Positions 46,479 to 64,000 of a DNA stretch of 64,000 nt are shown here, piece by piece. The stretch is from a phage. The DNA is taken from the NCBI GenBank assembly GCA_029742005.1, contig GCA_029742005.1_4113.1. One strand, given 5' to 3'. The notes beneath the pieces are model-generated. The model did not search any database. It was not told where the DNA came from and saw only the letters and a list, made by a program, of their open reading frames with translations. Position numbers and translations under genes: made by a program. Position 1 is the stretch's first letter. Every line of letters starts with the position of its first letter.

Positions 46479-47588
46479 TTATTTTGGTAAATCAATTTTA
46501 GTAAAGACTGCAACATCCTCGATTGCACCTGGAATGGCGTAATACGATCCAGTACTATACACATCTCCATTTTTGGTTAATATCGATGTCAAACCATCAC
46601 TAAAAAGAACATCCCTAATCTCACTAACTTCAACGGGTAATTGTAAATTGGTAGCACTATATATAGCACCAGTTTGAGAATTGTTTAATCCCAAACCACG
46701 GTTCGCCCCAACACCCTTCTGATATGTACTAGTAATTACCATTTGTGTAGCAGTATTTAAGGCAGGTGAATTCGTCATAAACAACGGAGAACTATTAGGC
46801 AAAGTACTTACAGGAACGGCACGGAATGTAGTCGTGCCTGAACTAAGAAAGTTTGGAGTTTGACCACATACGAAATATGATGTACCATTATAGTAATTGA
46901 ATGCATTACCACCAATGGCTGCATCGATTACACCAGAACTACGCAATCCCCAAGTGTTAATTTGTGTTTGGTTCCCCGTACCATGCTGTCCACTACTATT
47001 CCATCCAGAACTATATAGCTTATTATCTAATGTAAGATACATACTATCATTCGCATTGGTCATTACTTTACGAACGTTCGTAGCACATTGAGTTAATGTG
47101 TAAATTGATGAGGAACCAATACCCAAAGAACCACGATATCCATTATCTCCTGCACCATAGAGTACTGAATTAGTGCTAAGTACAAATATTAAACCATTTG
47201 TACATACAATATTAGCAATTTCACTTACTGGTATAGCATTGGTAAACCAATTAGTCCTTTCAACTAATACAGTACTGTAAGAAGTAGTTGTAGAAGATGA
47301 GAACCAGTACGTTTGACCTGATGTCCATATCGTATTATCATTTTTAATAATAACAAGTGTACGATCACCCACGAAAAAATTAGAAACATCTGCACTTACT
47401 AATATCCATGAAGATACCGTGTTGGTATTACCATTTCCAGATTCACCACCTTGATTTCTACCTATGTAATATAAATCATGTGAATCAGTCAATAAGAATT
47501 GACCTTGTGTAGAAGCACCAACTTTAATTATATTTTTAGGACCAGGTACAATATTTCCGTACTTAACCATTCTTGCAAAAGGTAACAT
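46479..47588 (-). CDS. RCC1-like beta-propeller repeat protein, array member 3
   Basis: N-terminus MLPFARMVKYGN; C-terminus FTKIDLPK. Confidence 0.7.
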   Translation of the reverse strand: MLPFARMVKYGNIVPGPKNIIKVGASTQGQFLLTDSHDLYYIGRNQGGESGNGNTNTVSSWILVSADVSNFFVGDRTLVIIKNDNTIWTSGQTYWFSSSTTTSYSTVLVERTNWFTNAIPVSEIANIVCTNGLIFVLSTNSVLYGAGDNGYRGSLGIGSSSIYTLTQCATNVRKVMTNANDSMYLTLDNKLYSSGWNSSGQHGTGNQTQINTWGLRSSGVIDAAIGGNAFNYYNGTSYFVCGQTPNFLSSGTTTFRAVPVSTLPNSSPLFMTNSPALNTATQMVITSTYQKGVGANRGLGLNNSQTGAIYSATNLQLPVEVSEIRDVLFSDGLTSILTKNGDVYSTGSYYAIPGAIEDVAVFTKIDLPK

Positions 47589-47598
47589 AATTCTCTCC

Positions 47599-48729
47599 TT
47601 AATTTAATAATGCCCCTGGCAAATCCACTTTGACGAATTGTGCATATGCTGAGGAATTTTGATCAAAGTTTGGTCCCAATCCATAAAATGAGCTAATGCC
47701 GTCTTCATTTGTGTATATGATATAAACGTTCTTTACATCATTTCCGCATATAAATCGAATGTCTTTCGTTTGTGTTCCCGCTGGAACATTACGAAGGTTC
47801 ACAACGCCATTACTTGCATTGTTATCAGCCGACGCAATTGGTAATTGATTTTGACCATATTGACCACGCATATTTTTTGCATCTAAACCAAACACAGTAT
47901 TTGATACCGCACCAACTTTCAAAAATGAACCAAAACTATTATTGAATGACTTTGGAAATGTACCACTATAAACACTTCTCCCATCTGATAATACCGCTGA
48001 ACTGAATTTCCCGTTATTCGATATGGCAAATTCATTGTAAGGAAGTGTACCCATTTTGGTATATACAGAATATGAATTAGTGGAAGTATTATCAATAATC
48101 TTATTACCATTATATCCAATACCATACTGGTATCCGTCTGCATCTTGAACTATACACAAAGGACCACTTGGGGTTTGTGTCAACGAAACAACACGTTCAA
48201 CTTGTATATCACCAAATGTATTTCTTCGCCATGTTCTATCTATTATAGTACTAGTATTACCCAAAGATAATTCCACACTATATAATAGATTGTTTTCAGT
48301 AAAAATGGCAACATAATATGCGTGGTTAATAACTTGCTTCATCCCAGCATCAATAACTTCCTGTGGAATATGATCAGTAACATCCAACCAATCAAGGTTA
48401 GATGATGCAATATCTGGAGTACTGAATTTGTCAAATCTAGTTGAGCCACAAACTAGCACTCTATCATCATTTGTCAAAGCCACTGTGCTAGTCTGCATAT
48501 TAGAACTGAATGATTTAACATTACTAATGTTAGACTTGTACCAACCCTTATCAGCAGCACCCACCGTGAATCCGGTTCCCATTGATCCACTTGTACTTGT
48601 ACCATAAGCCCACATCTCACCACTATATGTTAGTGCCATACAGTGGCTTCCATTTGCTTGGAAATCCTTTATACCAGTGGGAGCAACCACTGTATTCCCA
48701 TAATCAAACATTCTAACAAAAGGTAACAT
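47599..48729 (-). CDS. RCC1-like beta-propeller repeat protein, array member 4
   Basis: Start at MLPFVRMFDYGN; C-terminus FVKVDLPG. Confidence 0.7.
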   Translation of the reverse strand: MLPFVRMFDYGNTVVAPTGIKDFQANGSHCMALTYSGEMWAYGTSTSGSMGTGFTVGAADKGWYKSNISNVKSFSSNMQTSTVALTNDDRVLVCGSTRFDKFSTPDIASSNLDWLDVTDHIPQEVIDAGMKQVINHAYYVAIFTENNLLYSVELSLGNTSTIIDRTWRRNTFGDIQVERVVSLTQTPSGPLCIVQDADGYQYGIGYNGNKIIDNTSTNSYSVYTKMGTLPYNEFAISNNGKFSSAVLSDGRSVYSGTFPKSFNNSFGSFLKVGAVSNTVFGLDAKNMRGQYGQNQLPIASADNNASNGVVNLRNVPAGTQTKDIRFICGNDVKNVYIIYTNEDGISSFYGLGPNFDQNSSAYAQFVKVDLPGALLN

Positions 48730-48804
48730 AACTAAAATCTCCATATAATAATTATAATGTATTTACAAAAAAATACCAGTACATATTTCAGTACTGGCAT
48801 TTTG

Positions 48805-49932
48805 TTAAAATGGTAAATCTATTTGTTTAGTAAATGTCATACTTAGTGGTATTGAACACATTGACGCATTTCTCCCATTTAAATTGGACGGAGGCTGTCC
48901 GTTCATCCATATATTGGTATCGTCGTAAAAAGTACTCCACCACGTAGAACCTTCCGTATGAAGATTAATATTAAAATCAGGGAATTGACATTCTTGAAAA
49001 ACATCAAAAAACGGGATAGATGATACACTACTACCAGTAAATGGAGTGTAGCCTGTTGACATTAATTTATTAGTATCCGAATTTACCAAAAAGATAACAG
49101 AACCAGTATTGAATGGTGAATATTTTGGATACAAATTACTCATATCACCGATAGTGAAGTTGATATCAAATATTTTACTATGCTTACCAGTTCCTGAAAG
49201 TGTAGTACCAGTTACATATATTTTATTATCAGTTGTTCCCATGACAAACCCAATTCCAAATCCCACACAAAATGTTATGTCATATGGTATATTATCAAAG
49301 AGTGGGACAAACGTTGTGGCATCACCAGTAGTAGCTTTTATTTGATAGCTATTATTTGCCCCAGCACCCCAAACAGTACCATTTGATTTCACTTTGAATA
49401 TACTATCTCCTATGTAGTGACCGTATATACTATCAACTTCAGTATCAAGTTTTGTCCATTGTGATACAAAGTTTTTATGCCCTAAACCTAAACAACCATT
49501 GCGGTTTAGTCCCCTGCCGTATAGTGTACCATCATTCATCAGTACAAATGTTGTGTATCCACAAAGCATTTTTTTGATTTGTGTAACATCAATACCAGCA
49601 AAAAAACCACTCCAATCAGTATATCCTTGTTGGATTGCGTTTGATTTGGTGAATGACATAGTTGGTCCTGAACCATATATTTTACCATCTTTTATAATCA
49701 CTGAATAAGAACCTAACCATACATCTTGAACATTCTCACTAATTGTTTTCAATTCACCATATGCAGAGAATGGAGTACTTTGCCCTGCACTATATGATGA
49801 ATCTTCACCGTGTGCATATAATGTTCCATTTTCTGTTAGAATCATTTCCAAATATACACAATTGACAATTTTCTTTATTTTATTAACTTCTATTTTATTT
49901 CCGTACGCTAACATCCTTGCAAAAGGTAACAT
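48805..49932 (-). CDS. RCC1-like beta-propeller repeat protein, array member 5
   Basis: Start at MLPFARMLAYGN; C-terminus FTKQIDLPF. Confidence 0.7.
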   Translation of the reverse strand: MLPFARMLAYGNKIEVNKIKKIVNCVYLEMILTENGTLYAHGEDSSYSAGQSTPFSAYGELKTISENVQDVWLGSYSVIIKDGKIYGSGPTMSFTKSNAIQQGYTDWSGFFAGIDVTQIKKMLCGYTTFVLMNDGTLYGRGLNRNGCLGLGHKNFVSQWTKLDTEVDSIYGHYIGDSIFKVKSNGTVWGAGANNSYQIKATTGDATTFVPLFDNIPYDITFCVGFGIGFVMGTTDNKIYVTGTTLSGTGKHSKIFDINFTIGDMSNLYPKYSPFNTGSVIFLVNSDTNKLMSTGYTPFTGSSVSSIPFFDVFQECQFPDFNINLHTEGSTWWSTFYDDTNIWMNGQPPSNLNGRNASMCSIPLSMTFTKQIDLPF

Positions 49933-50007
49933 AACTAAAATCTCCATATAATAATTATAATGTATTTACAAAAAAATACCAGCACATATTTCAGTACTGG
50001 TATAATG

Positions 50008-51180
50008 TTATGGTAAAATAATAGCTTGTAACGAACTCATACCCAATGTTGGAACACTCGCCTGTGGTGCTGGTGCATTCACTTTTGGTGATGAAACCGC
50101 ATAAGTCATTCCTGTACCCAAATCTGGATCAAAAACTACAGAACAATAATCCCCATTGTATATAAGTCCATTAGTATATCCTTGTACACTTTGAATGCAT
50201 TTCGTGAACGTACCAATGTCAGTAGTGGCATTTATTAAGTTCCTCCCACGGTAGCCACATGTGTATATGAAATTATCATCACCTATGTACATACTCGCAT
50301 TCCCAGAAGAACTACATAGATAAGACATATAAGCACGCATGTTTTTAGGAGCAACTGACAATGTACCAGCATAGAATTTATTATTCATACCCGAAATATC
50401 ACCATCACCCAAAGCACCAAAACTCCCCCAACCAGTACCATAATATCTCTTATCACTCAAGAATATAATACAGTTGTTATTACACATCTTGACTTGATAT
50501 ATCAATGAAGGATCAACCCCAGGGAATGATTCAGTGTATGTTAGAACAGCCAGATCAGTACTGGCATTACATTGATGATATGTATTAGTACCAGCGGACA
50601 ATATTGTACCATCAACTAATAGAATCCTCGAAGTGCCAGTACCAGCAATACAAGCAACAGCATTACCTGTATATATTTTTCTGAAAGTAAAGAAACCAAC
50701 AGTCTTACTCCCCTGTCCACTCCAACCAGTATTATCAACACCACATGCCCATACTGAACCATCTTGCATGATCATCATTACACCATAGCGTTCTATCGAA
50801 ATATAGACAATCTTCGTAGTATCAACTGCACTAAATCTAGAAGTTATATCAGTCCAAACCTTTACACTCACCGCCGTCGCACCGAAAGTAGGATCTTCCC
50901 CTGCTATCATTATCCTACCATTGTTAGTCAGATACATTGTCTGACTATAACCAGTACTACAAAACTTAACACTATCAGTCTCTGGAACTTTTAACCACTC
51001 GTTGTAACGTGTTACGTTAGTGTTATTATCTAACTGATAATAGTTATTCATCCCAGATACATATAACACACCATCCTTTATTAAACTATAAGTCGCACTA
51101 TAGTCACTACAGGTATAACGTGTACCCACAGGTCGCTCAACGACGTTCCCATATTCTAACATCCTTACAAAAGGCAACAT
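50008..51180 (-). CDS. RCC1-like beta-propeller repeat protein, array member 6
   Basis: Start at MLPFVRMLEYGN. Confidence 0.7.
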   Translation of the reverse strand: MLPFVRMLEYGNVVERPVGTRYTCSDYSATYSLIKDGVLYVSGMNNYYQLDNNTNVTRYNEWLKVPETDSVKFCSTGYSQTMYLTNNGRIMIAGEDPTFGATAVSVKVWTDITSRFSAVDTTKIVYISIERYGVMMIMQDGSVWACGVDNTGWSGQGSKTVGFFTFRKIYTGNAVACIAGTGTSRILLVDGTILSAGTNTYHQCNASTDLAVLTYTESFPGVDPSLIYQVKMCNNNCIIFLSDKRYYGTGWGSFGALGDGDISGMNNKFYAGTLSVAPKNMRAYMSYLCSSSGNASMYIGDDNFIYTCGYRGRNLINATTDIGTFTKCIQSVQGYTNGLIYNGDYCSVVFDPDLGTGMTYAVSSPKVNAPAPQASVPTLGMSSLQAIILP

Positions 51181-51221
51181 AACTAAATACCAGAACATAT
51201 TTCAGTACTGGTATCGTAGCG

Positions 51222-52364
51222 TTAAAATGGCATCTTAACCTCTTTATATACTAATATATCACCGGATAAACCAGGAAACGCAGAACCATTACCACATGCA
51301 TATATAGTACTGTCATTCCACGCCGCTTGATGGTAATTACCTATAGTACATTTATAATTCGATAAATCAGTCACACCAGGTGTTAGTACATAATATACTG
51401 GTCCACTAGGTAAATTAAAATCAAATCTACCAAAGTAGTTCAAACCAGATGAATAGGACTTGTCATTAGCAAATATTACAGTACCATCTTCTGTAAAAGA
51501 ACTGTGAGAAATGTCTTTGAGATTGTTCACAACACCAGACGGTATTGATGTATTCAACGTAAAGGACGTCAATGGTGCTGCACTCGGTGTGTTGTTCGCC
51601 GTGTAACCATAATATGCATAACCAGCTACATATACACTCGAATCTGAACAAAATAAAAATGCACTCCTATAACCCAACCTAATACTCTCTATAGTCTTAC
51701 TAAAAGTAACTTTAGTAAAGGTAGGAACTAAACCACTATATCCTACCCCACATGTACCAAAATCATTCTTCCCAGTACTGTACAATTCGTTATTATTTGT
51801 AAGGTAAAATGACGCAGCAGCACCGCTATCTAAAGTACTGTAAACGTCTTTTACATTACTCGCAATCAATTTAAATGCACTCAATACGGTAGCCGAACCA
51901 TTGTTAGACAGCGTTGTTGAATCCGTGCCTTGTCCTATTGTATATAAATCTCCAGTACTAGTCAAAACAAATATACCATTAGTCGCCATAACAATTCTGT
52001 CATTCTTTAAATTAAATGAACTAAAAAGTGTACTTATATCAGTAAAGGTAGTATAACGCCCACTCTGCCCTATACTCGATAAATTCCCACTCAAATAAAC
52101 CTTATTATCATTACCAACAGCTACATAACAACCCCACCCAGCATATATCTGATCAATGCCTTGTATCGGTATTTGTAACCATTCACTACCAGTTACCGAA
52201 GCAGTACTTCCAGTTCCAAGTTCACCAGAGTTATTAGCTCCGAATACATATAAATTCCCACTATCCGATAAAACAACTGTATTACCAACTCCAGTTTTTA
52301 TATCCTTGATACCATTCTTAGGAGCAACATTCCCATAATCAAACATTCTAACAAAAGGTAACAT
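51222..52364 (-). CDS. RCC1-like beta-propeller repeat protein, array member 7
   Basis: N-terminus MLPFVRMFDYGN; C-terminus YKEVKMPF. Confidence 0.7.
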   Translation of the reverse strand: MLPFVRMFDYGNVAPKNGIKDIKTGVGNTVVLSDSGNLYVFGANNSGELGTGSTASVTGSEWLQIPIQGIDQIYAGWGCYVAVGNDNKVYLSGNLSSIGQSGRYTTFTDISTLFSSFNLKNDRIVMATNGIFVLTSTGDLYTIGQGTDSTTLSNNGSATVLSAFKLIASNVKDVYSTLDSGAAASFYLTNNNELYSTGKNDFGTCGVGYSGLVPTFTKVTFSKTIESIRLGYRSAFLFCSDSSVYVAGYAYYGYTANNTPSAAPLTSFTLNTSIPSGVVNNLKDISHSSFTEDGTVIFANDKSYSSGLNYFGRFDFNLPSGPVYYVLTPGVTDLSNYKCTIGNYHQAAWNDSTIYACGNGSAFPGLSGDILVYKEVKMPF

Positions 52365-52436
52365 ATTTCCCTCCTTTATTCATTATACTATATTTAATCA
52401 AAAATAAAAGCCAGTACTTGAGTACTGGCATAGTAT

Positions 52437-53564
52437 TCAAAAAGGTAAATCAATTTGCTTAGTAATAATAGTATCTAACGGTATTGAACACAATGAGAAA
52501 TTCTTTCCACCCGTATTTTCAGGATTATATCCATTCATCCATACATTATTACCTTCGTAAAATGTATTCCAGTATAAAGCCCCACTATATCGTGTATTCG
52601 AATTGAACGATGGAAAGTTGAATTCTTGGAATGATGTAAAATATGGAATGGAACTTGAACTACTTCCCGTAAATGGGGTATACCCAGTTGCTATTAGTTT
52701 GTTTGTATCTGCATTAATTAAAAATACAACACTAGTCGAATAGTCCAACGAATCAGGATGATATATATTACTCATATCACCTATAGTAAAACCAACATCA
52801 AAAACTTTACTATGTGCACCACTACCAGCAAAAGTAGTTCCAGTTGCATATATTTTATTATCAGATGTTATCATTACAAAACCAACACCAGAAACAAAAC
52901 TGCATTTTATATCATAAGATATATCATCAAACAACGGAACAAATGTGGTTGCATCACCCGATGTTGCTTTAACTTGAAAGCTGTTATTTGAACCTGAACC
53001 ATATACAGTTCCATCGTTTTTAATCTTAAACAATGTATCGCCAAGGTAACCGCCAAATATATTATCCACATTAGTGTCAAGTACAGTCCACGCTGAAACA
53101 TAATTTTTATGTCCTAAACCTAATGCACCACTTCGATTCCATCCTCTTCCATAAAGTGTTCCGTCTTTCATTAATATAAATGCTGTATAACCACATAACA
53201 TTTTTTTAATTTGGGTAACATCTATACCAGTGAAATACACAGCCCAGTCAGTATATCCTTGTTGGAAAGTATCAGAATTCGTGAATGCATATGTTGGACC
53301 TGAACCATATATTTTATCACCTTTAATAACAACGGAAAACAATCCTAACCATAAGTCATCAACTTCAGTTGTGATTTGTTGAACTGCTCCTAACGATACA
53401 AACTTTGTACTTAAACCCGCATTATAGTTTGAATCTTCACCGTGTGCATATACAGTGCCATCTTGCATTAGAAACATTTCAAGAGTGCCACTAACAACAC
53501 TTTTCTTTATATTATTAACTTCGATTATATTCCCATAATCAAACATTCTAACAAAAGGTAACAT
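52437..53564 (-). CDS. RCC1-like beta-propeller repeat protein, array member 8 (close paralog of member 5)
   Basis: N-terminus MLPFVRMFDYGN; C-terminus ITKQIDLPF. Confidence 0.7.
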   Translation of the reverse strand: MLPFVRMFDYGNIIEVNNIKKSVVSGTLEMFLMQDGTVYAHGEDSNYNAGLSTKFVSLGAVQQITTEVDDLWLGLFSVVIKGDKIYGSGPTYAFTNSDTFQQGYTDWAVYFTGIDVTQIKKMLCGYTAFILMKDGTLYGRGWNRSGALGLGHKNYVSAWTVLDTNVDNIFGGYLGDTLFKIKNDGTVYGSGSNNSFQVKATSGDATTFVPLFDDISYDIKCSFVSGVGFVMITSDNKIYATGTTFAGSGAHSKVFDVGFTIGDMSNIYHPDSLDYSTSVVFLINADTNKLIATGYTPFTGSSSSSIPYFTSFQEFNFPSFNSNTRYSGALYWNTFYEGNNVWMNGYNPENTGGKNFSLCSIPLDTIITKQIDLPF

Positions 53565-53636
53565 AATTCCCTCCTTTATTCATTATACTTTATTTAATAC
53601 AAATAAGAATTCCTGTATCGAGTACTGGCATTCAAT

Positions 53637-54785
53637 TTATTGTAAAAAGGACATATCTACTTCTGTATAACTAAGAATGTTTTGACCAGCAATTCCACCC
53701 ATTACTACTATTGCATACCCACAATAATATAATTTCCCAGTGTCCGTAAGTATAAGTGAACCAGAAGGTGTTCTTACCAAATTACACGAACTATTAAAAG
53801 AAGTATACGAAGGAGTATAGGAGTACTGATTAATATTATTACCAACACCTAATTGACCACCCCTATTCGAACCAGATGCATAAAGTACTTCATCTGCTTT
53901 GACAATATGTGATGCCATGTTAGCAACACATGCATATACACCATATACCCCTGTACTCAATAATGTAGGAGTCTTGTATTGAATATCAGTACTAGTAGAT
54001 GTTCCACCTGTGCCAAATTCATTACCATATTGTGCTCCGTACTGCTTCCCACATGCGTACAAATTATTATCCGATTTGATAAAAAATGTACTCTGATAAC
54101 TTACATCAAAATCTATAACATCCGAAGAAATCATCGTTACCCCAGTAATCGAAGTTTGATTACCAGTACCCAACTGGTAGTAATAGTTAAAACCACAACC
54201 CCATAAAGTATTATCTTCTTTTAGGTATATGTTACCAACTGCCTTTTTAACCGAAGTTATAGTATCTACCCTTTTGAATGTGTTAAAAGAATTAATGTTT
54301 GTACCATCACCAAATGATGATAGGTTCGAGTTATTGTTAACTCCACAACAATACAACGTACCATCGTTTGTTATCAAATTCACCTTCATATCATTAAAAC
54401 TACTCATGTATTTTATATCAGAAACATTAATACCACCTGATGTTATCCATGTAGTACAGTCCGTCCATAACGTCTTCCTATCAGTTACCCCAGTAAATGC
54501 CTTCGTGTTACCAGTGATAAACACTTTACCAGTACCCTTTTCTTCATACAATTGACAATCACTACTGTTATCTTCCAATAAAACCCTCTGTACATTCTCT
54601 GCACAAAGAATAAATTTACTCGATGCTACACCTGTTCCAGTACCCCAATTCGTCGCAGAAGATGCATACAACTTATGTGTTAGTGTATCATGCAAATACA
54701 TAGAACCACTAGAATATATTTTAAAACGCCCAGAGTTGGTAGGTGCTTCATTCCCATAATCAAACATTCTAACAAAAGGTAACAT
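53637..54785 (-). CDS. RCC1-like beta-propeller repeat protein, array member 9
   Basis: Start at MLPFVRMFDYGN; C-terminus YTEVDMSF. Confidence 0.7.
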   Translation of the reverse strand: MLPFVRMFDYGNEAPTNSGRFKIYSSGSMYLHDTLTHKLYASSATNWGTGTGVASSKFILCAENVQRVLLEDNSSDCQLYEEKGTGKVFITGNTKAFTGVTDRKTLWTDCTTWITSGGINVSDIKYMSSFNDMKVNLITNDGTLYCCGVNNNSNLSSFGDGTNINSFNTFKRVDTITSVKKAVGNIYLKEDNTLWGCGFNYYYQLGTGNQTSITGVTMISSDVIDFDVSYQSTFFIKSDNNLYACGKQYGAQYGNEFGTGGTSTSTDIQYKTPTLLSTGVYGVYACVANMASHIVKADEVLYASGSNRGGQLGVGNNINQYSYTPSYTSFNSSCNLVRTPSGSLILTDTGKLYYCGYAIVVMGGIAGQNILSYTEVDMSFLQ

Positions 54786-54827
54786 ATTTCCTCCTTTATT
54801 CATTATATCATATTTACCCCATAACCC

Positions 54828-56494: not shown

Positions 56495-57154
56495 ATGAAA
56501 CTTAATGCACACAGTAAACAATACCTTAAGCACTTTAAGTACCTCAACAGTATTCAAGCAGAATCTTTTACACCAACATATACTTACGACCCGTGTGTAC
56601 TAAAGAAACGAAATAAAAAGAAAAAATCCAGAAATGTTCTCGTATCTAAGAACCTCAAATCGTACTTGAAGAAAAATAATATAGCTCTTGCTTTTATTAA
56701 TATCTATAATACTGATTTAAAAGTATTGAGTACTAATACCAGCACAAAAGCACTAAAGAATGCATCTATCTATATACACATGGATAATATCCCGTGTACT
56801 ATAATTCTATCTTTCGGGAATGTATACTTCTTCGGGAATTGTAATAGCACCCATGATATCAGTACTGCACAATTCCAAATCGGCGATATGTACTGCATGG
56901 GTTCAGAAAAAATACACGATAACATGCACTTCTTCCAAAAGCAACGTACTAACGAAACTGATACAGTACTGCAATTCCTCAAAGAATTACAAGGCAAAGA
57001 ATTATCAGAAGAAGATCTATTCATGTACAGTACTGTAATCGATAATCCAGAACTCTATAAAAACGCGTACAATCTAACAAAACATGTACAGGAACTTATC
57101 AGTACTGATAAGAAATTTCATCACCTCATTACGTATATTTCAAACTATGTATAA
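56495..57154 (+). CDS. hypothetical protein (219 aa) embedded in small-paralog array
   Basis: ORF track; AAAGGAA RBS. Confidence 0.55.
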   Translation: MKLNAHSKQYLKHFKYLNSIQAESFTPTYTYDPCVLKKRNKKKKSRNVLVSKNLKSYLKKNNIALAFINIYNTDLKVLSTNTSTKALKNASIYIHMDNIPCTIILSFGNVYFFGNCNSTHDISTAQFQIGDMYCMGSEKIHDNMHFFQKQRTNETDTVLQFLKELQGKELSEEDLFMYSTVIDNPELYKNAYNLTKHVQELISTDKKFHHLITYISNYV

Positions 57155-57329
57155 AGAATACTACAAAGATAAAATCCCAATGCATCTACAACACCATATA
57201 CCAAACGTTGCATTGGGTATCAAAGATCACGCAAAGATAATGTTCCAACAATGTACTAAGTACACGCTCATATACGATGATAATCCATATATGCTGTACT
57301 ACGTAGTAATGCTAACATTCAGGTACTAA
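57147..57329 (+). CDS. small paralog-array protein
   Basis: Internal ATG (MYKEYYKDK) overlapping previous stop; C-terminus VVMLTFRY. Confidence 0.5.
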   Translation: MYKEYYKDKIPMHLQHHIPNVALGIKDHAKIMFQQCTKYTLIYDDNPYMLYYVVMLTFRY

Positions 57330-57330
57330 T

Positions 57331-57510
57331 ATGAATACTTATAAAGAATTCTACCTCTCGTACCTTAATTCCGATATAGTAACATCCAATACATTCAGTA
57401 CTAAAATTATCTATAATGAATTAATGAAAGAATGTATTAACGGTGCTATTAACCCTAAAGATACGTATGACTTGTACTATGCAGTACTAACCCTTGTTTT
57501 CACGAAATAA
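57331..57510 (+). CDS. small paralog-array protein (59 aa)
   Basis: Manually read ORF below track cutoff (MNTYKEFY...); TAATATG junction. Confidence 0.45.
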   Translation: MNTYKEFYLSYLNSDIVTSNTFSTKIIYNELMKECINGAINPKDTYDLYYAVLTLVFTK

Positions 57511-57518
57511 CACATAAT

Positions 57519-57710
57519 ATGAATAACCACAAAGAATACTACATAGAGAAACTCCCAATGTATCTCCAACACCTTGTACCAACAGAACCATTGGGTATAG
57601 AAAAAAACTACGAAAAAGACTACTTCATTCAGTGCACTAAATCCTCGATATATATTGAAGACTATAATCGAGTACTGTATCACATCCTTTTACTAATATA
57701 TAGGTACTAA
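57519..57710 (+). CDS. small paralog-array protein
   Basis: MNNHKEYYIEKLP ... LLLIYRY. Confidence 0.5.
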   Translation: MNNHKEYYIEKLPMYLQHLVPTEPLGIEKNYEKDYFIQCTKSSIYIEDYNRVLYHILLLIYRY

Positions 57711-57711
57711 T

Positions 57712-57894
57712 ATGCACAAAGAATACTACACACAATTTCTCCCCAGCATTTTTGAACACTACGCCAGATACAAAGTCCCTATGGATAACGATTTGGCAGT
57801 ACTGGGATTCAATAACTGCATAGAACGAAGTATAGAAAATAGTAGTAGTTATGACCAGCTATATAACACTATCCTACTTATATTCAGGTACTAA
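57712..57894 (+). CDS. small paralog-array protein
   Basis: MHKEYYTQFLP ... ILLIFRY. Confidence 0.5.
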   Translation: MHKEYYTQFLPSIFEHYARYKVPMDNDLAVLGFNNCIERSIENSSSYDQLYNTILLIFRY

Positions 57895-57895
57895 T

Positions 57896-58081
57896 ATGCA
57901 TAAAGAATACTACACACAATTTGTTAAAGGGAACTACAAACATGCCGTACCCAGAACCCCTTTAAATTCTCATGACCCAAGTACTATATTCTTGTTTAAT
58001 GACGCAATACGTACAGTACTCAATACTAAAGATGAAGATGTGCAGTACGTATTCTTACTATTACTTATATACAGACACTAA
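57896..58081 (+). CDS. small paralog-array protein
   Basis: Internal ATG (MHKEYYTQFVKG); C-terminus LLLLIYRH. Confidence 0.5.
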   Translation: MHKEYYTQFVKGNYKHAVPRTPLNSHDPSTIFLFNDAIRTVLNTKDEDVQYVFLLLLIYRH

Positions 58082-58086
58082 CTAAT

Positions 58087-58296
58087 ATGAATAAAGAACA
58101 TAAAGAATTCTACTCCAAATACATAAGCCCCTCAGAACAAATGTTTCTAAGGACTACTCCACCTTTAAGTACTAATACATTTTTCGGCAGAGTATGCTAC
58201 AATAATTGTATTCAAATGACTTTAAACGCAAACGAAGATGGTAACAGTACTAACCTGTACTCAGGTATCATAGGTATACTATTCCTGTATGAATAA
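58087..58296 (+). CDS. small paralog-array protein
   Basis: MNKEHKEFYSKY ... Confidence 0.5.
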   Translation: MNKEHKEFYSKYISPSEQMFLRTTPPLSTNTFFGRVCYNNCIQMTLNANEDGNSTNLYSGIIGILFLYE

Positions 58297-58477
58297 TTAC
58301 AAAGACTTCTATTTGAATACACTACCTACTGTACTTTCTCTAAGTGCTCAATGTAAAATCCCGCTGGATAATGCTTACGCCAGATATAGCTATTCCATAA
58401 CTGTTAATCGATGTATAGAGAATCATTGCAGTACTAACCAGTACTATAACATAATCCTACTTATATTCAGGTACTAA
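58289..58477 (+). CDS. small paralog-array protein
   Basis: MNNYKDFYLNTLP ... ILLIFRY. Confidence 0.5.
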   Translation: MNNYKDFYLNTLPTVLSLSAQCKIPLDNAYARYSYSITVNRCIENHCSTNQYYNIILLIFRY

Positions 58478-58478
58478 T

Positions 58479-58625
58479 ATGAATAAAGAACATAAAGAAT
58501 TCTATATACGAAAACTAACATTCGTCCCCGTAAGAATATATAAAGAATGCGACCCAAGATTATACCTATGGCACTTCAATGAGTGCATAAAAGATTCTAT
58601 ATACCATAAGAACTATAAAGAATAA
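58479..58625 (+). CDS. small paralog-array protein, short variant (48 aa)
   Basis: Manually read ORF (MNKEHKEFYIRKL...); may be a truncated copy. Confidence 0.35.
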   Translation: MNKEHKEFYIRKLTFVPVRIYKECDPRLYLWHFNECIKDSIYHKNYKE

Positions 58626-58676
58626 TTGTGCTCAGTACTAACACTAGTACTATCATATTAATTAATAGAGAATACT

Positions 58677-58868
58677 ATGTATAAAAACTTCTATATAAGT
58701 AAACTAAAAGAAAATGAACAAGTATGGATTAGATCTATAATTCCACTGGCATTTAATAGATATGCATTTAACAGATGTACCGAGATTGCTATAGACCCTT
58801 ATAATATTAAAGAGAATGTACAGTATAATCAGTACTACTATATCTTAATGCTTATATATAGAAAGTAA
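58677..58868 (+). CDS. small paralog-array protein, last member
   Basis: MYKNFYISKL ... ILMLIYRK. Confidence 0.5.
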   Translation: MYKNFYISKLKENEQVWIRSIIPLAFNRYAFNRCTEIAIDPYNIKENVQYNQYYYILMLIYRK

Positions 58869-59506
58869 TTAAACACAAGTAGACAGGGGAAGCTCCTAGT
58901 GAACAACCTTTATGTACAGGCGAATTGTTAAAATTCAGCCTGGACAAATGCGATCACTAGGATTCTCCCCAGGCTAAACCCCGTAATCATAGGTAGTCAT
59001 AAGTAATCATATATAAACATTTATATGAGCACCGTAGAATCACAGAATGATTATATATGATTCAGTACTGATTAGTATAGACAAGATTGCTCAAGAATGC
59101 ACGGAAATGTGTGTGAATGATTCAGTACTGATATCCCACTAAGTAGGCAGAGGAAGTCTGCCGTACTTTTTAGTTTCCAAGCTCCTTTTCCATTTTTCAA
59201 ATTACATCAAATGTAATCAAAAGTAATCACGCAATGATTAGTACTGAATTATTACTTTCACCTTAATTTCAATGACCCCTTTACCCTTCGGGGTAAAATT
59301 CCATTACCCCTTGAGGCTCCAGCAAAAAGTTGGTTAGTACTCCATCCTAAATCTCGATCCTAAAAATTTTGGAGTACCTATGAAATAAAAGTTGGATCTT
59401 CGAAAGTTGAAATTTACGTTGGGACGTTTATGATTTGTGGGATATAATGATGTTTGTAGTCGGGTAGTTCTCAAGAATATCAGTACTGAATAATGAAAGA
59501 AAGCTA

Positions 59507-59533
59507 TTGACATTATGATTCAGTACTGTATAA
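59507..59533 (+). promoter_or_regulatory. sigma-70-like promoter inside the ORF-free region
   Basis: TTGACATTATGATTCAGTACTGTATAAT; no ORF downstream. Confidence 0.5.
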
Positions 59534-59920
59534 TGTTCTACATAGCTTCAAGGGGTGATGAGTTGCTGCGAACAATTCATTTACTCTACCTCCTGTCGTG
59601 AGACAGTACAGAAAAGATAGTTCCTCCTGTGGTGGTACATCTTTTTGAACCTCATATGAAAATCGTAATAACAGTACTGATATTAACAGAATGGTGTCAG
59701 TACTGATTTTAATCTAAAGCATTATGCCACCAGCACAAGCTGGTGGATTCCCTCTAACAGTATTCAGTACTACATGATAGTCTTCATCCTCCTAGGGTAA
59801 CATAGTGAGGGCTATGATGGCAGTACTGAATACTCCCTTTCAAAAGATAGATCTATGGTATAGTACTGACGGATTTTGGGCGTAGTTACCCTGGATGGAT
59901 TTTGGACGTAGATATGTCTA

Positions 59921-60060
59921 GCCCTCCAGAAGTCTGGAAGTAAAGATGGCTATCCATCTAGACGGCTAAACGGCTAGATTTCTGGATGGCTGGATGGCTA
60001 GACGTTTGGACGGCTAAACGGCTAGATGGTTACACGTCTGGAAGTATAGACGGCTAAATC
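59921..60060. repeat. cluster of short direct repeats (iteron-like)
   Basis: GACGGCTAAACGGCTAGAT x2, GTCTGGAAGTA x2, multiple GGATGGCT copies. Confidence 0.6.
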
Positions 60061-60220
60061 AAAATTTTATTTTGTTTTTTCCAATAGTTCCCCTACCGCG
60101 TGGGGATAGTTTCCCCGCAGTATCTGGAGTTAGATTTTTCTGAATCTGGAATCATTATCTTATAAACTGGGGGCAATGTCAACCGCCTGGACGGATATTT
60201 TTAAAAATTTTTTCAGTACT

Positions 60221-60295
60221 GAATTTTGGGCGTAACTATGCACCCGGTGGGCTATAGTCTTTCTCGACTTGATGGAACTATTATACAGTACTGAA
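60221..60295. repeat. ~70-bp repeated element, copy 1
   Basis: GAATTTTGGGCGTAACTATGCACCCGGTGGG...; related copies at 60436 and 63774. Confidence 0.5.
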
Positions 60296-60435
60296 AAAAT
60301 AAAGCAATACCCTGGAAGCAAAAAAGTTTTAATTAATTTGCTTGCCATCCTGGGCCGTACTATGGTACTATATTTCAGTACTGAGAAAGTGCGTTTACCT
60401 GCTAGGGTGCGGGAGTGTATCCTTTTTTTATATCT

Positions 60436-60505
60436 TGAATTTTGGGCGTAATTCCGCACCCTCTGGGGTTTCCGCTTTCTCGCGTCTATGTAGTAATTAT
60501 ACGCT
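60436..60505. repeat. ~70-bp repeated element, copy 2
   Basis: GAATTTTGGGCGTAATTCCGCACCCTCTGGGG...TAGTAATTATACGC. Confidence 0.5.
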
Positions 60506-60816
60506 TTTTCAGGATCAAGTCAATACCTAAAAACAAAATAATTGAAAATAATTTAACGCGTTTAAACGGCCCGTAACGCCCTGGAATGATTGGAATGGTG
60601 CAAATGTATAGCTTAGGTGTATTAATGCGTTAGAATGCGTCTGAGGCCGTTTTACGGGGTATGGGGATGATTTAGTGGATTGATTCAGTACTGAATGATA
60701 GTACTACTATATAGAAAGATAGTTCCCCTGGATGGTTGCAGTACTGAATGATAGTACTGAATAATAGTTCCCCTATATAGAAAGAAAACTATTTTAAAAG
60801 TATTTGTAGAAAGTAC

Positions 60817-60876
60817 TTGCAAACTATGTTTAACGGCGTATAATGTTTTACATCGAGAGCGGGAACACTTCCCGCT
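60817..60876 (+). promoter_or_regulatory. class C cassette: sigma-70-like promoter plus GC-rich leader hairpin
   Basis: TTGCAA-N16-TATAAT then hairpin GCGGGAAC...TTCCCGC. Confidence 0.6.
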
Positions 60877-60899
60877 ACACTTTAAGAGAGATTAATACG

Positions 60900-61262
60900 A
60901 TGGCGACTCAAATCACTAAAATCATGCTTAACCTGGTAAACTTCCGCGATGAGATGAAAGGTCTTCCGGCTGAAACTGTAAAAATTCACATTGCAGCTTA
61001 TCGGGAACTTATTGCAATGTTGCCGCTTAAGCGTGAACAATACGCCGCTACTTTGATGCTTGATTCAATGATCCATATAATGATCTCAAATGATTTAACG
61101 ATGGTTTATCAGTATATGGGTGAATTGTTCGCGGTGTATAGTAAACCAGTACCAGGAATGGAAAGTACAGAAGTATTACACGGTTTAAATTTAAAACAAG
61201 ATGCATGGGATAATATGCCTCGTTTCCTGGTATGGGCTGACAGTGGCAAGATTTACGAATAA
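60900..61262 (+). CDS. hypothetical protein
   Basis: Internal ATG (MATQITKIM) downstream of leader hairpin. Confidence 0.55.
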   Translation: MATQITKIMLNLVNFRDEMKGLPAETVKIHIAAYRELIAMLPLKREQYAATLMLDSMIHIMISNDLTMVYQYMGELFAVYSKPVPGMESTEVLHGLNLKQDAWDNMPRFLVWADSGKIYE

Positions 61263-61276
61263 GTTTTAGAAAGTAC

Positions 61277-61335
61277 TTGCAAACTAAGTTTAAAAGCGTA
61301 TAATGTTTTACATCAGGTGGGGAATAGTTCCCCAC
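61277..61335 (+). promoter_or_regulatory. class C cassette: promoter plus leader hairpin
   Basis: TTGCAA-N16-TATAAT then GTGGGGAA-TAG-TTCCCCAC. Confidence 0.6.
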
Positions 61336-61355
61336 TATATAAGAGGATTAAAAAA

Positions 61356-61595
61356 ATGGCTAAATCAAAAATGTTCTTGGGTCACAAAAACAAAACTCAT
61401 TGGAATGTAAGCCTTTGGATTAATAACGATGAGTCATTGTACCGGTTGGCCCAGGACTTTATTGCCGCCAATACTAATCGCAATGATGCGGCCCGTCATA
61501 TGATGTTATTTTTAGAACAGACTGGACAATATAAAACACCGGACGGATTCAAATATAGCACTACTGCGATCCGTGCGGCGATGGTTGGAATGTAA
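61356..61595 (+). CDS. hypothetical protein
   Basis: ATG after AGAGGA RBS (MAKSKMFLG). Confidence 0.55.
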   Translation: MAKSKMFLGHKNKTHWNVSLWINNDESLYRLAQDFIAANTNRNDAARHMMLFLEQTGQYKTPDGFKYSTTAIRAAMVGM

Positions 61596-61680
61596 TAGAA
61601 TTTATTTAAAGTACTATCGCAAAAAATGATAGTACTTTATAATAGTGTTTTATTCATACACCAACGATAAGGGCAACAGC

Positions 61681-61947
61681 ATGAATATTAAGTATTTTGC
61701 GACGCGTGAACAAGCTCGGATCGCCGCACGCCAGGACGGGGCAACGTTTAAAGATATGGGCGTACAATCGGAACGTGGTAAACGTTGGGCCATTATAAAG
61801 CGTAGTACCGCCAGATCATTACAGTACTGGCTATCTGCTTTAAAGCGTCCTGATAGTGTATCGCGTCGCGTGGTAGAAATAAAGCACGACCGCAAGGGCA
61901 ACCGCGTTACTGTGTACAGTACTAAAAAGATAGCAGTACTTGAATAA
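61681..61947 (+). CDS. hypothetical basic protein
   Basis: ATG after AAGGGCAA (MNIKYFATREQ). Confidence 0.5.
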   Translation: MNIKYFATREQARIAARQDGATFKDMGVQSERGKRWAIIKRSTARSLQYWLSALKRPDSVSRRVVEIKHDRKGNRVTVYSTKKIAVLE

Positions 61948-61953
61948 AAGTAC

Positions 61954-62022
61954 TTGCATACTATGTTTAAAGGCGTATAATGTTTTACATCAGGACGGGG
62001 AACGAAATAAGTAACTTCCCGT
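61954..62022 (+). promoter_or_regulatory. class C cassette: promoter plus leader hairpin
   Basis: TTGCAT-N16-TATAAT then ACGGGGAAC...CTTCCCGT. Confidence 0.55.
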
Positions 62023-62071
62023 TAAGTAGCCCAGGAGTAAGGCACACGAAAAACTCCCCTGATAAAATAGT

Positions 62072-62099
62072 TTGACAAATGTTTTTAAAAGCGTATAAT
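62072..62099 (+). promoter_or_regulatory. sigma-70-like promoter
   Basis: TTGACA-N16-TATAAT upstream of ORF 62132. Confidence 0.55.
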
Positions 62100-62131
62100 A
62101 CTTACATCAACTACTGAATGAGGGTTACAAA

Positions 62132-62743
62132 ATGAAAACTATCACTACTACTACTTTCGTTATGGCTTTTTCTGAATTGAACGCAGAACAACAAACGTCA
62201 GCTATCGAACTGGTTCGGGATCGGGAACGTTCAAGCGGTGATGATTTCTTTTCTGAGTCAGTGATCGAGTACTATAAAGAAACAGTACTACCAGAATATG
62301 GAATTGATGACGCTGATTTGCAATTCAGTGGTTTTTGGTCGCAGGGTGACGGTGCATCAATCAGTACTGACCACGTTGACGCAGTGAAGTTTTTACGCAA
62401 GATTAAAGCATTAACTAAGTATCGTTCTATCCGTCACCTGCTGAATGAAGATGATTTGGCGATGAGTGTAAAGCGTTCTCACTCCCACTACTCGCATGAA
62501 AACACTGTAAGCGGGTACATTGAATCGGGGTACACTGATTTAACCGCAAAACAAGAAACGTTAGTTAATGAGCTTGAGGAACTACTCACTGAAACTATTC
62601 GTGAATTATCCCGCAAGTTGTACCGTGATTTAGAGAATGCATATGAGGATCAATTCACTACTGAAAACATTACGGCACTGATTGAGGGTAACGAATATCA
62701 ATTCAATGTTATTGATGGCGTAGTAGAATCTATCGAATATTAA
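62132..62743 (+). CDS. hypothetical acidic protein (203 aa)
   Basis: ORF track; GAGGG RBS. Confidence 0.6.
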   Translation: MKTITTTTFVMAFSELNAEQQTSAIELVRDRERSSGDDFFSESVIEYYKETVLPEYGIDDADLQFSGFWSQGDGASISTDHVDAVKFLRKIKALTKYRSIRHLLNEDDLAMSVKRSHSHYSHENTVSGYIESGYTDLTAKQETLVNELEELLTETIRELSRKLYRDLENAYEDQFTTENITALIEGNEYQFNVIDGVVESIEY

Positions 62744-62799
62744 TTCAGTACTGAATCAATGGCGGGAGTGGTTCCCGCCTATAACCAGGAGTAAGCATC

Positions 62800-63033
62800 A
62801 TGTTCGAACAAATTCAAACGACCACAAGCCGGAGCGGAACGAAAGTACATTACATCGCTGATACTGATAAAGGTGTACCCTATTGTGCTGTACACGTAAA
62901 TACTGACGGTGACTATTGGTTAACTGTATACGGGCGTTACTCGTTTGCTTTTAGTGCACATTGTAAGATCCTGGAAGTAGTGAAGCCTACCGGTAAGAAT
63001 ATCACGCCGGGAAAATGTTTTACTAAGCACTAA
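62800..63033 (+). CDS. hypothetical protein, paralog of partial ORF at 63955
   Basis: N-terminus MFEQIQTTTSRSG vs MLEQIKSTSSNVTG. Confidence 0.55.
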   Translation: MFEQIQTTTSRSGTKVHYIADTDKGVPYCAVHVNTDGDYWLTVYGRYSFAFSAHCKILEVVKPTGKNITPGKCFTKH

Positions 63034-63040
63034 AAAGTAC

Positions 63041-63101
63041 TTGCATACTAAGTTTAAAAGCGTATAATACTTTATATCGAGGCGGGGGAATGGTTCCCGC
63101 C
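63041..63101 (+). promoter_or_regulatory. class C cassette: promoter plus leader hairpin
   Basis: TTGCAT-N16-TATAAT then GGCGGGGGAA-TGG-TTCCCGCC. Confidence 0.6.
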
Positions 63102-63119
63102 TTTACTGAGGATTATCTA

Positions 63120-63407
63120 ATGAGCAAAGTAATTAACTATACAGTACTAAGCAAGTCATTATCTATTAGCCAGTGCACCGATGGTTTTTGGCTGTACGAT
63201 GAAACGCGTGGCATGAATTTAGCTATGCGGGAGAAAACTGCTGAGGCGGCGTATTTACAAGCCCTGGAATACTACCAGGAACGTTTAAAGGAAGTAGAAA
63301 ACAATTATCAAAATTTAAAAGAGAAAGTAGATAATTTCGTTGGTCAATTCGTTGACGATGACGAGGAAGACGGGCACTACTGCAACCGTTGCGGATCTTA
63401 CAATTAA
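63120..63407 (+). CDS. hypothetical protein with C-terminal CxxC
   Basis: ATG after GAGGA RBS (MSKVINYT). Confidence 0.55.
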   Translation: MSKVINYTVLSKSLSISQCTDGFWLYDETRGMNLAMREKTAEAAYLQALEYYQERLKEVENNYQNLKEKVDNFVGQFVDDDEEDGHYCNRCGSYN

Positions 63408-63411
63408 GTAC

Positions 63412-63471
63412 TTGCAATTAGTTTTCAGTACTGTATAATGGTTTACATCAAAGGGAGAAATGGTTCTCCCT
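63412..63471 (+). promoter_or_regulatory. class C cassette: promoter plus leader hairpin
   Basis: TTGCAA-N16-TATAAT (spacer has CAGTACTG) then AGGGAGAA-ATGG-TTCTCCCT. Confidence 0.6.
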
Positions 63472-63489
63472 GGTAATGAGGAAAATAAA

Positions 63490-63711
63490 ATGGCTAATAT
63501 CACTACTCTTTCCCAACTGGAAGCACTGGTTAAATCTATGCGGGAACATGCCGACAAAATCGGCGTACAAGATCCAGCCGTTTGCTTTTGCGACGAATTG
63601 AATGATGATACCCTGGTAATAGCAGAAGTCCAGGACGTTTCTAACTATTCCTCGCGTTACACTGGCGGCGTAGCAAATAAAGGTGACTTCTGTTTATACC
63701 TTACAAAATAA
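63490..63711 (+). CDS. hypothetical protein
   Basis: ATG after GAGGAA RBS (MANITTLSQ). Confidence 0.55.
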   Translation: MANITTLSQLEALVKSMREHADKIGVQDPAVCFCDELNDDTLVIAEVQDVSNYSSRYTGGVANKGDFCLYLTK

Positions 63712-63773
63712 CAACGCGGGGAGATAATAACTCCCCGTTACTTTTTCAGTACTGAATCATTTAATAGACGGAT

Positions 63774-63826
63774 CTATGCACCCGGTGGGTTAGTGACTGT
63801 TTCGTCTTGATGTAGTAATTATGCCA
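63774..63826. repeat. ~70-bp repeated element, copy 3
   Basis: TCTATGCACCCGGTGGGTTAGTGACTGTTTCGTCTTGATGTAGTAATTATGCC. Confidence 0.45.
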
Positions 63827-63879
63827 GTACTGGATGCACTTGTCAACAATTATTTTTCAAATACTTTTTATTAAAATAC

Positions 63880-63933
63880 TTGCAATTAGTTTTTAAACGC
63901 GTATAATGTTTTGCATAGGGGGAGCGGTTCCCC
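63880..63933 (+). promoter_or_regulatory. class C cassette: promoter plus leader hairpin
   Basis: TTGCAA-N16-TATAAT then GGGGGA-GCGG-TTCCCC. Confidence 0.6.
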
Positions 63934-63954
63934 TGGTAACTAAGGAATAATAAA

Positions 63955-64000
63955 ATGCTTGAACAAATCAAATCAACGTCTTCGAATGTAACGGGAACGG
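63955..64000 (+). CDS. hypothetical protein, 5' partial at window edge
   Basis: ATG after AAGGAA RBS; ORF runs off the window. Confidence 0.4.
   Translation, partial: MLEQIKSTSSNVTGT

Follow-up and report, generated by a model that had tools for sequence, protein, structure and literature searches.

A probable array of promoter-early stem-loop-like cassettes with transcribed leader hairpins in the terminal repeat of an Asteriusvirus jumbo coliphage

We analyzed a 64,000-nt stretch of phage DNA (contig GCA_029742005.1_4113.1, hereafter the window), the last 3 kb of which carry repeated sigma70-type promoters followed by hairpins. The best explanation for this region, and one that we consider probable as a whole, is that it lies at the beginning of an approximately 21-kb direct terminal repeat (DTR) of an Asteriusvirus jumbo coliphage (PBECO4/121Q/phAPEC6-like) and consists of mobile early-expression cassettes similar to the promoter-early stem-loop (PeSL) cassettes of T4-like phages. 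Each typical cassette would place a hairpin in the leader of its own transcript, and the helix is maintained on the sense strand, most likely as RNA.

The array lies at the predicted start of a direct terminal repeat

By megablast, the window is 92 to 95% identical to genomes of about 350 kb from the Asteriusvirus jumbo coliphages phAPEC6, PBECO4 and 121Q, and the closest records are classified as Caudoviricetes; Asteriusvirus. The related genome vB_Ec-M-J has an annotated DTR at positions 1 to 21525 (21,525 bp), and the repeat of fEgEco12 is 20,993 bp long, with ends verified by PhageTerm and restriction digests (PMC13070987). Because position 1 of both vB_Ec-M-J and fEgEco12 aligns to position 59142 of the window (identity, 95 to 97%), we regard 59142 to 64000 as the first 4.9 kb of the DTR. 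Its initial 1.7 kb is non-coding; the cassette array begins at 60.8 kb and reads inward.

Six of seven promoter units lead into a leader hairpin

A repeat search recovered seven copies of a 47-nt sigma70-type promoter unit (Table 1). The first-pass annotation had counted six, each followed by a hairpin. Four copies match its consensus with 0 to 2 mismatches over 32 nt (0 expected by chance), and the count of six stands if the variants at 63402 and 63870 are included; these two differ in the spacer but not in the AGTAC-TTGCAA −35 region, TATAAT or the gTTTtaCAT start region. It had missed a seventh copy, the TTGACA variant at 62062, and this copy has no hairpin. In general, the cassette promoters have TTGCAA or TTGACA, a spacer of 16 to 17 nt and TATAAT, with AAAAGTAC upstream. 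The upstream tract is A-rich and ends in AGTAC, the discriminator/start region gTTTtaCAT is conserved, and the whole cassette spans about 90 nt.

The other six copies lead into a hairpin of −10 to −16 kcal/mol with a G-run in the 5′ arm and a C-run in the 3′ arm, whose stem starts 13 to 14 nt past the −10 box in most copies. From the hairpin to the ATG there are 10 to 24 unpaired, A-rich nucleotides holding a Shine-Dalgarno (SD) site, and then a small gene; the SD site and the AUG are unpaired in every fold. Hairpin-bearing promoter-like sites were concentrated at 60.8 to 64 kb (6 of 8, versus 1 of 25 elsewhere in the window; Fisher P = 1.7e-4). All 46 distinct hairpins have the G-run 5′ and the C-run 3′, with stems of 7 to 9 bp. 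Their loops vary widely (TAG, ATGG, TGG, ACGG, CAC, ATATC and others), with lengths of 3 to 5 nt and up to 14 nt.

A covariance model of the hairpin matched at 60852, 61311, 62755, 63077 and 63446, and nowhere else in the 64 kb. The match at 62755 belongs to a hairpin without a promoter, at 62761 to 62779. This was one of two promoterless hairpins reported in the first-pass annotation, and it is a true member of the family. The other, placed at 63716 to 63745, folds at 63716 to 63738, has a T-run and does not match the leader-hairpin model; it is a different, terminator-like hairpin. The leader hairpins all lack a U-run, and a terminator scan flagged none of them. No Rfam 15 covariance model matched either strand of 58800 to 64000 at E ≤ 1, and the seven local proteins matched only families of unknown function in Pfam and PHROGs.

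Table 1. Promoters, hairpins and related features in the last 4.9 kb of the window
Feature	Position	Strand	Details
DTR, first 4.9 kb	59142..64000	+	Left genome end inferred at 59142; point of GC rise
Promoter copy 1	60807..60853	+	−35 TTGCAA 60817-60822; −10 TATAAT 60839-60844
Leader hairpin 1	60858..60876	+	AGCGGGAA-cac-TTCCCGCT; 33.5 bits; −12.5 kcal/mol, z −3.1; next gene 60900-61262
Promoter copy 2	61267..61313	+	−35 61277-61282; −10 61299-61304
Leader hairpin 2	61316..61336	+	GGTGGGGAA-tag-TTCCCCACT; 38.6 bits; next gene 61356-61595 (DUF7249)
Putative promoter, other class	61609..61643	+	Inverted repeat AAAGTACTATC...GATAGTACTTT ending in TATAAT 61638-61643; next gene 61681-61947
Promoter copy 3	61944..61990	+	−35 61954-61959; −10 61976-61981
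Leader hairpin 3, long-loop variant	61994..62023	+	ACGGGGAAC...GTAACTTCCCGT; with the next ~40 nt forms the inter-promoter spacer
Promoter copy 4	62062..62108	+	TTGACA 62072-62077; TATAAT 62094-62099; consensus 12/12; no hairpin; next gene 62132-62743
Promoterless family hairpin	62761..62779	+	GGCGGGA-gtggt-TCCCGCC; 24.4 bits, E 1.5e-5; 21 nt before gene 62800-63033
Promoter copy 5	63031..63077	+	−35 63041-63046; −10 63063-63068
Leader hairpin 5	63079..63103	+	19.2 bits; −15.8 kcal/mol; next gene 63120-63407
Promoter copy 6	63402..63448	+	−35 63412-63417; −10 63434-63439; CAGTACTG in spacer
Leader hairpin 6	63452..63471	+	AGGGAGAA-atgg-TTCTCCCT; 21.3 bits; next gene 63490-63711
Terminator-like hairpin with T-run	63716..63738	both	−15.1 kcal/mol, z −4.2; outside the leader-hairpin family
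Promoter copy 7	63870..63916	+	−35 63880-63885; −10 63902-63907
Leader hairpin 7	63916..63935	+	GGGGGAGC-GGTTCCCC type; −11.4 kcal/mol; gene from 63955, runs off the window

Two further arrangements were seen within the array. The segment from 61994 to 62061, between the tandem promoters at 61954 and 62072, is a conserved, structured non-coding spacer; this two-promoter module occurs twice per DTR in relatives and is 88% identical in the Justusliebigvirus phage outra. The inverted repeat at 61609 to 61643 is a putative promoter of another class, and its leader did not form a hairpin on folding (−2.7 kcal/mol, z +0.4).

The helix is under selection on the sense strand

Covariation was assessed in a gapless alignment of 36 distinct copies of the class with 3-nt loops. 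This alignment, along with helix tallies made sequence by sequence, replaced a MAFFT alignment of 81 full leaders, where the RNAalifold consensus was poor (−3.2 kcal/mol) because 3-nt and 4-nt loops were mixed and the 5′ arm was shifted by one column. The leaders had been picked by a folding cut-off, which essentially all TTGCA-type promoters in the repeats pass. In the 36-copy alignment, 98.6% of the cells pair, and changes on both sides were found at 5 of the 8 pairs, in 43 cells. The covariation score was 0.48, compared with 0.16 for shuffled alignments (0 of 500 reached 0.48) and at most 0.19 when the partners were slid.

Inside the helices of the 36 distinct stems, the non-Watson-Crick pairs were 35 G·T and 1 A·C. 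If a duplex palindrome were decaying neutrally, the two kinds should be equally frequent. Of 78 leaders, 64 folded more stably in the sense than in the antisense orientation (P = 2e-8), and this difference was confined to stems with G·U (−3.15 versus +0.51 kcal/mol). The G, AA, TT and C positions of the stem are invariant (core G-N2-AA-N3/4-TT-N2-C), and the loop has a bias to GG on its 3′ side. Since the changes are compensatory, G·U is tolerated but A·C is not, and the sense fold is the more stable one, the helix is most likely maintained as RNA, which supports the earlier suggestion that the hairpins are RNA elements.

We also considered that the inverted repeat is a double-stranded DNA operator at +7 to +27, where a dimeric repressor would block the early promoters later in infection. 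The invariant palindromic core, lying inside the polymerase footprint, fits such a site. However, the stems change by compensatory substitution while the bases themselves are not conserved, and the excess of G·T over A·C would be meaningless for duplex DNA. With loops of 3 to 5 nt and as many as 14 nt, the spacing of the half-sites would change as well. We rejected the operator on the asymmetry between G·T and A·C, and regard it as highly improbable.

The array is confined to the terminal repeat and differs in composition

We scanned five relatives (phAPEC6, vB_Ec-M-J, TH47, EC22.5-2 and 121Q) for the cassette, a search that the first-pass annotation had proposed as a check. Each genome has 17 to 28 hairpin-bearing promoters, all within about 21 kb of the DTR start, and none was found in the 17 to 18 kb upstream or the 5 to 10 kb downstream of the DTR. 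In vB_Ec-M-J, all covariance-model matches lie below position 20678 of the 21525-bp DTR. Gene spacing follows the same border: the cassettes occupy spacers of about 85 nt between the DTR genes, whereas the genes just past the DTR overlap by 1 to 35 nt and have no intergenic promoters. Thus, the idea of a separately regulated module agrees with a DTR start made up of single-gene units with their own predicted host-type promoters.

The difference in GC content and codon usage, also claimed earlier, was confirmed by composition comparison. GC content was 0.395 in 59142 to 64000 versus 0.339 in the rest of the window, where all other 4.9-kb stretches were at or below 0.375. The shift does not start at 60817, as had been supposed, but about 1.7 kb upstream, at the structural boundary near 59142, where GC content goes from 0.324 just before to 0.388 to 0.399 after. 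GC content at third codon positions (GC3) in the window was 0.405 for DTR genes and 0.257 for the others (P = 4.6e-8). In vB_Ec-M-J, gene GC content was 0.398 for 53 DTR genes and 0.322 for 39 genes just past the repeat (P = 4.6e-12). In DTR genes, CTG, CGC, GGC, CCG and ATC are used more and AGA, ATA, GGA and ACA less, which is a shift towards the codons preferred by Escherichia coli. It also runs away from the codons of the phage's own tRNAs (Gly-UCC, Thr-UGU and the CAU tRNA).

These tRNAs belong to a group of seven tRNA genes at 376 to 5414 of the window (Gly-UCC, Ser-UGA, Ser-GCU, Ser-ACU, Met/Ile-CAU, Asn-GUU and Thr-UGU), several of which serve codons used frequently by most of the phage genes and avoided in DTR genes.

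Around the predicted genome end, other features were noted. The first DTR promoter, at 59507 to 59543, is a perfect TTGACA-16-TATAAT located 366 bp from the inferred end and conserved in relatives. It is followed by a different, longer hairpin and about 1.3 kb without a credible open reading frame (ORF), to about 60800, and may give rise to a long non-coding early transcript. Within the same 1.7-kb non-coding head, iteron-like repeats with an 8-bp period (GGATGGCT / AGACGGCT / AAACGGCT) occupy 59896 to 60055, 750 to 900 bp from the inferred end, and may be a packaging or replication site. Directly before the DTR boundary, at 57150 to 58870, lie about nine tandem, short paralogous ORFs of roughly 48 to 76 aa, which start with MNKEHKEFY... 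or MYKNFY... and each end near ...LLIFRY/IYRK.

Gene content differs at cassette borders, and genes are shared between phage lineages

The window and vB_Ec-M-J are about 95% identical, and yet three differences in gene content were found in less than 5 kb, each bounded by cassettes. vB_Ec-M-J has an extra gene after gene 1, in an event flanked by two identical hairpins, and a second extra gene after gene 3, while gene 5 of the window is replaced by a different gene. Among six genomes, 229 of 575 ends of synteny blocks (40%) fell inside cassettes, compared with 69 (12%) expected.

Sharing extends to other coliphages. Gene 61356-61595, together with its −10 box and leader, has 80 to 88% nucleotide identity to genes of Phapecoctavirus, Vequintavirinae and Justusliebigvirus, and the promoter-hairpin-SD layout also occurs in Phapecoctavirus phiWec188 and Justusliebigvirus outra (rV5-like and phi92-like coliphages). 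A few cassettes of this kind were also present in the terminal repeat of a more distant Klebsiella jumbo phage. One DTR gene has 38%-identical homologues in Krischvirus (the RB49 group), where they stand behind a classical PeSL; in the Krischvirus PeSL examined (ECD7), the stem overlaps the −10 box.

The first-pass annotation had suggested a possible horizontal acquisition of the module, and a recently acquired foreign island covering the last 3 to 5 kb would explain the GC content and codon use. The step up in GC and GC3 agrees with this, as does the identity of gene 61356-61595 and its leader to rV5-like and phi92-like sequences; in addition, several genes are annotated in phAPEC6 as having relatives in rV5, Felix O1, RB49 and JS98. 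On the other hand, every Asteriusvirus genome examined has the module, at the same place and with the same composition. The module also coincides with the terminal repeat, which is a structural feature of the genome, and the shift to host-preferred codons would follow from early expression as well. What remains of horizontal acquisition is the exchange of single genes with their leaders and the differing content at cassette borders. Given its conservation across the genus, we rejected a recent island as the whole explanation and judge it quite improbable.

Proposed role of the leader hairpin

We propose that the DTR would be an array of about 25 to 30 early units of one gene each, which run inward from the left end of the genome and whose promoters host RNA polymerase would fire once the leading DNA end enters the cell. 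The transcribed hairpin may then act as a 5′-proximal mRNA stabilizer and insulator, so that any gene inserted would come under an identical, protected leader with its ribosome site open. The conserved cassette could also provide homology for gene swaps, within the genus and with other coliphage families, as has been proposed for the PeSLs of T4-like phages.

Several points weigh against this proposal. Promoter activity and the start site are predicted from the consensus only, and the DTR boundary of this phage was placed by homology to vB_Ec-M-J and fEgEco12, not by its own reads. Single hairpins are only modestly more stable than shuffled sequences (z −1.1 to −3.4), as runs of G and C readily pair. 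Since we compared paralogous copies from related genomes, neither the covariation nor the breakpoint counts represent independent events. Intergenic DNA alone would attract breakpoints without any role of the cassette. Furthermore, with a consensus-predicted start 7 to 8 nt past the −10 box, the unpaired 5′ tail would be 5 to 7 nt, longer than the 2 to 4 nt thought, from work on ompA, to be compatible with full protection from RNase E.

The main rival is that the hairpin is a transcription attenuator or terminator, as was first proposed for PeSL stem-loops, damping both upstream read-through and its own very strong promoter to keep expression of each gene tolerable. It holds this position because a PeSL stem-loop is reported to have lowered downstream expression: lacZ placed behind it was reduced as by a strong terminator, and the native promoters of PeSLs could not be cloned owing to their strength (Arbiol et al., PMC2839356). 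Selection on the sense strand would fit an RNA hairpin acting on polymerase, and hairpin-only copies occur just after a stop codon (62761 in the window; 4889 and 15787 in vB_Ec-M-J). But the lack of a U-run and the negative terminator scan argue against it, and the hairpin at 63716 that does have a T-run comes from another sequence family. Since the leader hairpin lies downstream of the predicted start of its own promoter, a strong terminator there would silence its own gene. In the one PeSL that we examined from Krischvirus, the stem overlaps the −10 box and would hence affect upstream transcripts only, and this layout is not used in the DTR. For want of a T-run, we did not adopt termination as the principal explanation; with the PeSL precedent in mind, we kept it as a rival that we consider unlikely.

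Alternatively, the hairpin may be a recognition tag shared by DTR mRNAs, through which a specific protein would control the early set coordinately after transcription. Such a protein might be a translational repressor or an endoribonuclease encoded by the phage, or a factor through which phage mRNAs are spared during host mRNA decay. Its fixed position and orientation, with the G-run always 5′, the invariant stem positions and the GG bias in the loop would suit such a tag, as would its persistence across three phage lineages and without a promoter at 62761. Against this, varied loops and stem differences at 5 of 8 pairs would be loose for a sequence-specific binder, the invariant positions may reflect common descent, and no candidate binding protein emerged; the seven local proteins are all of unknown function. 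We think this role rather unlikely. One form of it, about which we are similarly doubtful, is that the hairpin, a 5′ structure common to jumbo, rV5-like and phi92-like coliphages, is a self-marker on about 30 immediate-early mRNAs, allowing escape from phage-accelerated, RNase E-dependent destruction of host mRNA, or a handle by which one phage factor later shuts off the whole DTR set.

Comparison with known systems

We conclude that the DTR array consists of PeSL-like cassettes, a variant of those of T4-like phages and not a new kind of system. PeSL cassettes were first described in the RB49 group and are known from the T4-like phages RB49/phi1, T4/PST and KVP40/nt-1 (PMC2839356, PMC4122927). 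Their stems lie mostly between or over the −35 and −10 boxes; five subclasses have been described, which include positions upstream of −35 or just before the start site (PMC2839356). Recombination of the cassettes into mini-circles is a further PeSL trait. The DTR cassettes share with them a predicted early promoter of the sigma70 type, an A/T-rich tract upstream of it and, next to it, a stable stem-loop with a G-run and then a C-run, as well as an SD site and start codon at the 3′ end and a small orphan gene in a variable region. In both, the cassettes are repeated in intergenic spaces, and indels or replacements between close relatives end at them. The −35 sequence TTGCAA also fits the nt-1/KVP40 consensus TTGYVH.

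The DTR cassettes differ in five respects. First, the DTR stem is wholly downstream of −10 and would be transcribed at a fixed +6 to +8, unlike the classical placements; the nearest PeSL subclass is "downstream of −10, just before initiation". Second, the carrier is a Rak2-like jumbo phage and not a member of Straboviridae, and Rak2-like phages are only distantly related to T4 (PMC5259590). Third, the array is co-extensive with the 21-kb DTR, whereas PeSLs are scattered in hyperplastic regions. Fourth, it has its own GC and codon signature. Fifth, the cassette type crosses phage families. Outside the DTR, the window also contains composite terminator-promoters at 26582 to 26620, 38105 to 38143 and 38688 to 38726, in which a hairpin (GGGTTGAC-TTCG-GTCAGCCC) is followed by a T-run; the −35 TTGACT lies inside the 5′ arm and the T-run forms the spacer before TATAAT. 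This arrangement is the classical PeSL layout and was also seen in the Klebsiella phage fENko-Kae01.

Among Rak2-like jumbo phages, RpoD-like early promoters have been predicted in vB_PcaM_CBB and GAP32 (PMC5259590). They resemble the present ones in being sigma70-type promoters with UP-like elements that cluster ahead of short hypothetical genes, and three of them lie in the CBB terminal repeat. The difference is that 18 promoters were found by MEME, and that a leader hairpin, a repeat-wide array, codon differences and cassette-bounded shuffling are not mentioned (PMC5259590). In the literature that we searched, papers on this phage group report terminal repeats and the CBB RpoD-like promoters but no leader hairpin or cassette array. 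Likewise, our literature searches turned up no prior description of such promoters, hairpins or PeSL-like elements for Asteriusvirus or for rV5-like phages.

Early or host-takeover clusters in terminal repeats are familiar from the terminal redundancy of SPO1 and from the pre-early first-step-transfer region of T5. As is seen or predicted for the DTR array, these have small genes of mostly unknown function, many strong promoters for host polymerase and one direction of transcription, and they are located in the terminal repeat that enters the cell first. However, they are not known to be related to the DTR array in sequence, and to our knowledge a uniform leader hairpin on nearly every unit has not been described as a feature of the SPO1 or T5 modules.

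As for the hairpin itself, mRNA-stabilizing 5′ stem-loops occur in the E. coli ompA leader and in the T7 phi10 leader (GGGAGACCACAACGGTTTCCC). There, too, a short G/C-rich hairpin near the 5′ end (in the DTR cassettes, the predicted end) is followed by an unstructured, A-rich ribosome-binding region, and some DTR hairpins read ...GGGGAAACGGTTTCCCC..., which we take to be near the T7 phi10 stem. Unlike in these leaders, the predicted unpaired 5′ tail is 5 to 7 nt, which exceeds that of the classic stabilizers, and the DTR hairpin is also found between genes without a promoter.

Other repeated elements in the window

The palindrome CAGTACTG occurs 63 times in the 64 kb, versus about 0.6 expected from base composition. 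AGTACT is present in 236 copies, versus 21 expected under a dinucleotide model, and is the most over-represented hexamer (observed/expected ratio, 11). Examples of these sites are at 1733, 2212, 20510, 36204, 59063 to 60739 (14 copies), 62746, 63426 and 63747. Copies of the motif occur in every reading frame, at about twice the density outside ORFs. The motif stands right before TATAAT in many spacers and directly 5′ of −35 (AGTACTTGCA); it also flanks −35 boxes as inverted pairs and forms part of terminator stems (GCCAGTAC...GTACTGGC). Its distribution looks like that of a signal read in the DNA itself, for example a site of binding or modification; a literature search for the motif returned nothing relevant.

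A 54-nt element is present in three copies on the minus strand (63769 to 63846, 60231 to 60307 and 60447 to 60523), each with a sigma70-like promoter ahead of it. The predicted leftward transcripts start with AT(C/A)(A/G)A... and fold into two small hairpins, the first with GAGAAA or GAAACA as its loop and the second of the form CCC-N3/4-GGG; the stem differences between copies are apparently compensatory. Conserved copies are present in five Asteriusvirus genomes as well as in fENko-Kae01, and the element has no Rfam match. The three copies are candidate small RNAs, and the transcript of the copy starting at 63846 would end at the bidirectional terminator at 63716 to 63738.

The minus strand of 43204 to 54803 carries ten tandem paralogous genes of about 370 to 396 aa, with a 239-aa ORF (44445 to 45164) among them. 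Some are RCC1-like according to the phAPEC6 annotation, and terminator hairpins containing CAGTAC/GTACTG stand between them.

Implications

Jumbo phages of this group are under development for therapy, and more than 80% of their genes, including all early genes, have no known function. The 21-kb DTR can be read as one uniform expression platform, in which a promoter, a structured leader and a ribosome site precede a swappable gene. Read in this way, the DTR shows which genes are likely to be immediate-early and offers a defined element for experiments. As a compact promoter-hairpin-SD unit, the cassette could also serve as a strong, insulated expression part for E. coli. PeSL-type gene shuffling appears to extend beyond T4-like phages, with a cassette common to unrelated coliphage families, which suggests a common marketplace for host-takeover genes.

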